A stretch of DNA of 64,000 bases from Promethearchaeati archaeon (GTDB lineage: Archaea > Asgardarchaeota > Heimdallarchaeia > Heimdallarchaeales > Heimdallarchaeaceae), in NCBI GenBank assembly GCA_013166775.1, contig JABLTJ010000009.1:1-64000 (forward strand). The letters are read 5' to 3'. Made by a program: the position numbers and the translations under genes. Below the pieces are notes generated by a model. That model did not search any database, was not told the origin of the DNA, and saw only the letters and a list, made by a program, of their open reading frames with translations. This document shows, one piece after another, positions 46,568-46,908 of the stretch (position 1 is its first letter; every line of letters begins with the position of its first letter).

Positions 46568-46870
46568 AAAAAGGATTTCTGCCTGAACAGGAAGGGGATT
46601 CTGACTCGATGCCTCTGGGGTTTTTTCATCCTTACGGATGATGGTTGGGGGTTCTGGCAGACAGAAGTTGTCTGTAAATCAGACACATCTGATTCTGGGG
46701 ATTCGGGCTCAGGAGGTCTTAACTAAGCCCAATGGGGGTTCAAACCATCTAAAAAGGGGTTCAACCATAGTTCCCGAGATTTACCCTTGGGAAGGGTTGA
46801 AGCATCGGATTCTCTTCCTGTTCAGTTTGCAGTTTCCTCTTAGATAGCCTTTTACTAAATAACCCCAACT
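46568..46870 (-). ncRNA. Unassigned ~300-nt structured ncRNA candidate
   Basis: GC-richer than flanks; closing helix 46583-46594/46814-46825 extended on both sides; five hairpins; BRE-TATA ~25-30 nt upstream; oligo-T at 3' end. Confidence 0.7.
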
Positions 46871-46891
46871 ATATTATTTTCTCTTTGAAAC

Positions 46892-46908
46892 TATATAAAT
46901 GTTTTTCT
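46892..46908 (-). promoter_or_regulatory. Archaeal BRE + TATA box for the ncRNA candidate
   Basis: Minus strand AGAAAAACA-TTTATATA; predicted TSS ~46869-46870. Confidence 0.6.

Follow-up and report, generated by a model that had tools for sequence, protein, structure and literature searches.

A stand-alone structured RNA gene of the Heimdallarchaeaceae and its probable maturation into a 250-nt circle

In a 64,000-nt stretch of contig JABLTJ010000009.1 from an archaeon of the family Heimdallarchaeaceae (here called the window), a preliminary description had noticed a structured RNA with repeated AACCCC-like motifs at positions 46568-46908 and could assign it to no family. The locus raises the question of whether this RNA is a genuine gene, what its mature product is and what that product may do. 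Our analysis established that it is a real, stand-alone gene for a structured non-coding RNA on the minus strand, and that the RNA belongs to no described RNA family and forms a previously undescribed one.

The gene and its distribution

All feature coordinates of the preliminary description were confirmed, and its choice of the minus strand was upheld. The folding z-score of the region was -5.0 on the minus strand versus -3.7 on the plus strand, the conserved promoter is on the minus strand, and both GNRA and UUCG loops were found there; a plus-strand reading, with its weaker folding significance and without a conserved promoter, was rejected. The TATA element TTTATATA was located at 46899-46892 together with an A-rich BRE (promoter 46892-46909, minus strand), and a near-invariant TTTA(A/T)ATA with the A-rich BRE was observed across 21 aligned genomes, in distant genera too. 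From the TATA spacing, the precursor would start at about G46869. Its 5′ leader or 'exon' of about 45 nt (46827-46869, minus strand) varied in sequence among the aligned genomes and was missing from the RNA contigs described below. At the other end, the proposed oligo-U terminator was found as U5 at 46572-46568 (minus strand), where all homologues are U-rich.

When this copy and six homologues were searched against Rfam with gathering and E-value thresholds, only chance matches were obtained. The RNA was indeed neither SRP RNA nor RNase P RNA, as neither gave an Rfam match and genuine copies of both were present on other contigs. The SRP models of Rfam had no match here up to an E-value of 10 and none in distant homologues either, the SRP helix 8 motif was absent, also when read across the ring junction, and a full-length SRP RNA of the same genome was located on contig C54. 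RNase P/MRP likewise had no Rfam match, distant homologues included; the P4-like helix was only a surface likeness, the key CR-I motif of P4 being missing, and the RNase P RNA of the same genome was found on contig C6. A coding or rolling-circle ORF was rejected since no ORF was conserved and the circle lengths of the homologues fall in all three frames, and a K-turn at the P1/P2 loop since the alignments contained no tandem GA pairs. Box C/D guide RNAs are marked by C and D boxes together with a conserved 10-12 nt rRNA complement. No C box was found in the RNA, an 11-nt complement to 23S rRNA was confined to genus g1 (to which this genome belongs), and no rRNA complement common to six genomes was found, so that an rRNA guide and membership of the box C/D class were both discarded. 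The idea that the 5′ leader pairs with the AACCCC motifs was also dismissed, the leader sequence not being kept across genera. Literature searches, with subscription journals mostly outside their coverage, yielded no description of the RNA.

Using a sequence profile, the RNA was found in 28 of the 30 other genomes of the Heimdallarchaeum family, in all five genera, and both complete genomes, Ca. Heimdallarchaeum aukensis and Ca. Heimdallarchaeum endolithica, carry the gene. Two of these 28 (G009 and G019) hold fragments only. In G009 (L052:6596-6638) the gene stops after 43 nt, near the contig end, which may be a loss or a misassembly. The RNA was not convincingly found in 52 other genomes of the class, where two weak matches were attributed to chance, nor was it found in a phylum-wide sample of 137 genomes outside the family, which overlaps the class sample; these wide searches used a sequence-only model, which structure-only homologues could escape. 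Another 14 bacterial pattern matches were rejected as chance. As far as the contigs reach, all 24 full-length copies lie at the same chromosomal place, and in distant genera with long enough contigs the gene is directly upstream of Elp3, an HTH gene, fibrillarin and Nop5. Whole hairpins were gained or lost at several internal points between homologues.

Bulge-helix-bulge and the probable circular product

The 12-bp helix 46583-46594/46814-46825 was confirmed as perfect. It had been read as a closing helix, and it is real, but its role as a bulge-helix-bulge (BHB) splice signal had been missed: outside it, the 5′ strand carries a 3-nt bulge and CUGC and the 3′ strand carries GCAG and a 3-nt bulge, and these flanks therefore make up a BHB. 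All elements are on the minus strand. The BHB 5′ strand (46826-46837) comprises the outer helix, CUGC at 46832-46829 and a bulge AAA at 46828-46826, while the 3′ strand of the inner helix P1 and of the BHB (46573-46594) comprises the inner arm at 46594-46583, GCAG at 46582-46579, a bulge AAA at 46578-46576 and an outer UCC. The 5′ arm of P1 (46814-46825) showed compensatory change in six of ten counted pairs, and helix P2 (5′ strand 46799-46807, partner 46607-46615) has a core of five pairs that was 100% paired, two of them compensatory. The five hairpins listed earlier were all present, including the one with a GUAA (GNRA) loop on the minus strand at 46626-46641; the latter, however, is a lineage-specific insertion seen only in this genome and a near-identical RNA contig, and was missing from the other aligned genomes and from contigs X11 and X21.

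Covariation among homologues from all five genera supported this structure. The central 4-bp helix was fully paired (4/4) and flanked by two 3-nt bulges in 24 of 24 full-length homologues, with differing sequences in its two strands (CUGC/GCAG, AUGU/GCAU, CUAC/GUAG and GUGU/GCAC). The outer BHB helix was canonical in the four distant genera, whereas it was relaxed and imperfect in genus g1, this genome included. In total, compensatory changes were observed in 13 of 31 pairs, which none of 500 shuffles reached in an independent MAFFT alignment, a test that the relatedness of the genomes inflates; pairing in the alignment was 96%, compared with 30-44% in slid controls.

The endonuclease EndA cleaves a BHB after the second base of each bulge. 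By this rule the cuts would fall between 46827 and 46826 and between 46577 and 46576 (minus strand), and a 250-nt piece, 46826-46577, with three A's at its junction was thus predicted. The RNA region was indeed present in RNA libraries, in the form of assembled contigs, which carry no information on strand, start or level. Part of the stretch was contained in 16 runs on record as RNA, and RNA contigs from three studies (three runs aligned) were confined to 46576-46828. The junction GCAG-AAA-CUGAAC appeared with the same letters in RNA contigs of all three studies, and the back-joint ran from 46825 to 46576, 250 nt back. Two of the metatranscriptome sequences were assembled as closed unitigs without any leader branch. 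Contig X1 differed from this genome by one mismatch and was 280 nt long (250+30), and contig X11, which lacks an 18-nt hairpin, was 262 nt (232+30); both lengths would match closed rings if the assembly used 31-mers. Run X21, the library type of which is not on record, gave a linear contig extending through the promoter and covered 26 of 30 bins as DNA would.

With its promoter, covarying BHB and exact junction in RNA libraries, this gene very probably gives rise to a BHB-processed circle of 250 nt (46577-46826, minus strand). Only the precursor would then have the size of about 300 nt proposed earlier, the mature RNA being circular and not linear. In the pathway we envisage, the dedicated chromosomal gene would be transcribed into this precursor, the paired ends of which would form the BHB; by established BHB chemistry, the tRNA-splicing endonuclease EndA would cut both bulges and a ligase, probably RtcB, would join the ends of the inner 250 nt to give a ring, while the short flanks would be discarded. 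The same genome encodes two EndA genes and RtcB. The ring itself is predicted to be rod-shaped, with a multiloop of exchangeable hairpins at its end, and to display a few invariant C-rich stretches, the most specific of which is the GACCUCCU loop described below. Alternatively, the mature RNA might be a linear hairpin, EndA-trimmed or unprocessed, with the junction as a reverse-transcription artefact: its ends would lie side by side in a helix, a reverse transcriptase crossing the nick of a cut, unligated hairpin would yield the same junction, and the evidence seen consists of cDNA contigs only. This is improbable, as the junction has exactly the three A's predicted from the BHB in three studies of differing library types, the closed unitigs have no leader branch, and the BHB geometry is maintained by compensatory change.

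The closest precedent for a circle of this origin is the SRP RNA of Thermoproteus tenax, which is circular and BHB-processed by EndA (Plagens et al. 2015, PMC4731332). The two are alike in having a stand-alone gene with its own TATA box, a short leader and trailer folding into a BHB, EndA cleavage with identical junctions, and a stable circle of similar size (PMC4731332). In contrast, the T. tenax molecule is an SRP RNA in permuted form, which has helix 6/8 motifs and is bound by SRP19 and SRP54 (PMC4731332), whereas the Heimdall RNA has no SRP motif and coexists with a full-length SRP RNA elsewhere in the genome. Other BHB circles come from tRNA introns, such as the C/D guide in the tRNA-Trp intron, and from circular pre-rRNAs, and they share with our RNA the splice signal and the junction rule (PMC12558985, PMC12918454). 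Unlike these, the Heimdall RNA has no host tRNA or rRNA, and conservation is seen in the excised product and not in the flanks, which are short; the 24 homologous circles measure 213-290 nt and possess neither a C box nor a K-turn nor a conserved rRNA complement. A genome-wide scan for other units with BHB-like flanks returned 18 matches, most probably chance, among them units of 125 and 55 nt in this genome (G000 C102 near 92718 and C78 near 72138, both on the minus strand).

One likeness to tRNA introns concerns the 7-nt flank loop. Joined to each other, the flanks would form the loop CUGCAAA, which is identical to the tRNA-Cys anticodon loop of this lineage, and in two distant genera tRNA-Cys introns are found at the corresponding anticodon-loop position. 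Descent from an intron-bearing tRNA gene with decayed exons is plausible. It is a different matter whether the locus is nothing but a decayed tRNA-Cys gene, the long intron of which is a functionless or selfish by-product. For this one could cite the loop identity, the intron position and the mere 43-nt 5′ fragment in G009, yet intact tRNA-Cys genes are present at other loci, neither a T-arm nor an acceptor stem is found in the flanks, and it is the 'intron' that is conserved, since 28 of 30 genomes keep it, its loop motifs are invariant and it covaries; we regard it as scarcely credible, a tRNA-intron origin being plausible and a lack of function not. An intron-containing or split tRNA-Cys was rejected as well, because the flanks form only an anticodon-like hairpin and intact tRNA-Cys is encoded elsewhere. 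The tRNA-Cys of this genome (G000 C35 near 60691) has an unusual T-loop, with G for the second U, and was missed by ARAGORN.

Repeats of the gene 3′ end and downstream cassettes

Five further copies of the last 25-58 nt of the gene were found downstream of it, all on the strand of the gene, and the rest of the genome contained none. These displaced copies are R5 (44932-44968), R4 (44084-44143, the longest), R3 (42217-42259), R2 (41168-41213, decayed inside the BHB arm) and R1 (39747-39783, decayed), all on the minus strand. The C>T change reported in R4 was verified as a T replacing C46613, which converts a G-U into an A-U pair, but this pair lies in the inner extension helix and not in the 12-bp helix, and relatives usually have A-U at this position of the second helix. 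Between the copies lie five cargo cassettes of 0.85-1.9 kb (39784-46567), which consist of whole genes in either orientation: a second secY, a solute-binding-protein fragment, a 517-aa unknown, a 225-aa unknown, and a Zn-ribbon membrane protein with a TPR-like protein. The second secY (39793-41079, minus strand) was 52% identical to the copy on contig C1, and secY cargo was also present in the arrays of two relatives, with differing neighbours; the cargo at 41312-41989 (plus strand) was a shortened paralogue of a family-5 solute-binding protein. Arrays of 1-6 copies were found in many genomes of genus g1, with copies that resemble the local variant of the gene, and even close relatives differed in the content and order of the cargo; no 3′-end arrays were seen in the other four genera.

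A displaced 3′ fragment of the same kind was found 1-2 kb downstream of tRNA-Cys in two relatives, and for this reason the repeats are best explained by additive integration of the ordinary kind at the gene of a stable RNA. The displaced tRNA-Cys fragments (L163:6805-7950, L164:4177-6570 and G000 C73 near 48516) start near the anticodon loop and have alleles unlike the resident gene. At a different locus of another genome (L093:895 in G010, contig C27), a degenerate copy of the RNA 3′ end was observed beside a NosD-like cargo gene. Integrons are recognised by a linked IntI tyrosine recombinase and attC hairpin sites. Neither a tyrosine recombinase nor a reverse transcriptase was found in this 89% complete genome, no integrase or tyrosine recombinase was linked to the cassettes in 30 relatives, and an integron was rejected on the lack of IntI in both. 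Neither viral contigs nor the surroundings of the integrases examined contained the att core.

Taken as a whole, it is likely that in genus g1 the 3′ end of the gene receives insertions of small DNA cassettes in the way a tRNA gene does, the arrangement being that of a tRNA-type integration hot spot, with downstream direct repeats flanking variable DNA. Tandem integration scars (attL/attR direct repeats) are known from tRNA 3′ ends, where same-strand 3′-end copies of a stable-RNA gene similarly flank variable cargo (PMC2704930, PMC6563490). In comparison with them, the target here is a new RNA gene, and the Heimdall cassettes are mostly 0.4-2.7 kb, have no integrase and show ragged 5′ boundaries.

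The gene at 38548-39522 (minus strand) encodes a protein that has a long acidic tract and, at its C-terminus, a Pfam Recombinase domain standing alone (E 4e-5), without a catalytic serine domain; most genomes of genus g1 have such a gene at the distal end of their cassette region. This gene could be taken, together with the five same-strand 3′-end copies that separate whole genes and the differing order between close relatives, as the sign of a gene-capture system that builds the array with the RNA as its guide or platform. We consider such a system very unlikely: the RNA is family-wide, whereas the arrays were seen only in genus g1, tRNA-Cys has similar displaced fragments 1-2 kb downstream in the same genomes, the protein with the Recombinase domain lacks a catalytic domain, neither an integrase nor a reverse transcriptase is linked, and the copies decay inside the BHB arm. 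Serine recombinases of about 260 aa were also present, about two per genome in 29 of 31 family genomes (C65:89645-90064 and C80:26358-26801 in G000), and tyrosine recombinases were sporadic in the family and not found in one complete genome; the former might replace Xer or mobilise cassettes.

Conserved motifs and possible function

Of the seven AACCCC-like motifs counted in the preliminary description, six are strict AAYCCC and one, at 46794, is a loose copy. Six strict copies exceed the shuffle mean of 0.87 and the maximum of 5 in 5000 dinucleotide shuffles; this number is not conserved, however, as homologues have 1-6 strict copies and distant genera 1-4. Most of the motifs do lie between hairpins, except for two of the seven (46594 and 46794), which sit in stems. 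Only two 8-mers were invariant in 24 of 24 circles, namely CCCCAGAA, a linker at 46693-46700, and GACCUCCU, which lies at 46711-46718 in the loop of the covarying hairpin 46705-46730 (both on the minus strand). A second (C/U)CAGAAC motif is located after the variable hairpin cluster, at 46650-46657 (minus strand), and (C/U)CAGAA was present two to three times in every one of the 24 circles.

The host 16S rRNA ends in GAUCACCUCCU, and ACCUCCU within GACCUCCU is identical to its last 7 nt, the anti-Shine-Dalgarno (anti-SD); ACCUCCU was common to the 16S ends of all six genomes checked. This match was recognised only in retrospect and in an RNA rich in C, and a rough post-hoc estimate put its chance at about 0.006. 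The first G of GACCUCCU is also invariant, but that position is C in 16S rRNA. The stem of the hairpin changes in sequence between genera; in genus g1, GACCUC of the motif is predicted to be unpaired and its last two bases pair within the stem, and in some genera the motif is partly paired. No conserved partner for GACCUCCU was found inside the ring. Shine-Dalgarno motifs were enriched 5-9-fold upstream of the genes of this genome. The full 8-nt complement of GACCUCCU occurred at a gene start in 0 of 42 genomic sites, and pairing would therefore be limited to 5-7 bp; no specificity determinant for mRNA pairing was found. In the 16S rRNAs of this genome and two relatives (L056, L161 and L162), hairpins of about 30 nt, either introns or expansion segments, are inserted in or just after helix 45, before the anti-SD, and an apparent lack of the anti-SD in two genomes was a false alarm caused by such a hairpin.

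Since the GACCUCCU loop matches the 16S end and the host uses Shine-Dalgarno signals, we favour, tentatively and at somewhat less than even confidence for the statement as a whole, a stable BHB-derived circle that would act on translation initiation. The ring would pair with GGAGGU-type ribosome-binding sites of mRNAs in the manner of RsaE or RNAIII, or else it would act as a decoy for proteins that recognise the 3′ end of 16S rRNA. In Staphylococcus, RsaE and RNAIII are C-rich anti-SD regulatory RNAs with several unpaired C-rich motifs and a loop able to pair with the Shine-Dalgarno sequence (PMC2790875). The Heimdall RNA resembles them in its conserved, unpaired C-rich motif complementary to the host Shine-Dalgarno sequence, a likeness drawn from sequence and predicted loop, and differs in being archaeal and circular and in sharing no sequence homology. 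No partner protein or target of the ring was identified.

As a close rival, the same circle may serve as a scaffold or sponge for proteins, with no relation to the anti-SD, a possibility that we consider nearly as likely. Proteins would bind the two unpaired (C/U)CAGAA linkers, the GAACCCC stretches and the sequence-conserved rod. Such a role would suit the invariance of CCCCAGAA, the recurrence of (C/U)CAGAA in all circles, the enrichment of AAYCCC in this copy, and hairpins that come and go between motifs while the motifs stay undisturbed, as in RNP scaffolds; KH-domain proteins are encoded in the genome. It is weakened by the unconserved copy number of AAYCCC and by the lack of any candidate partner linked to the gene, and it leaves the identity of one invariant motif with the 16S end unexplained. 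The scaffold was originally proposed in a CsrB-like form, and this form had to be abandoned. CsrB and RsmZ are sponge RNAs with many GGA motifs in hairpin loops, in hosts that possess CsrA. The Heimdall RNA shares with them short repeated motifs between hairpins and a length of a few hundred nt, whereas its motifs are C-rich and vary in number, GGA occurs 0-6 times over all homologues and never as a repeated loop motif, and a search for CsrA found none in this genome, which is 89% complete.

More speculatively, and with a probability that we would put low, the favoured action at translation initiation can be extended to an exon-less 'intron gene' for a stable circular RNA that exposes a copy of the anti-SD and checks mRNAs or ribosome factors with it, for example in dormancy. 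If true, the ring would represent regulatory circular RNAs of a new class, in the class of archaea that stands closest to eukaryotes.

The processing route by BHB is known, and the RNA family is new. The cited literature describes BHB circles as rRNA intermediates, as tRNA introns and as a rescued SRP RNA, while the Heimdall ring has no host exon to serve and has yet been retained by nearly all members of the family. In these close relatives of eukaryotes, the tRNA-splicing machinery would serve here specifically to make a circular non-coding RNA, with a small substrate that is directly testable. As the ring assembles closed in sediment RNA, similar chromosome-encoded rings could pass for viroid-like replicons.
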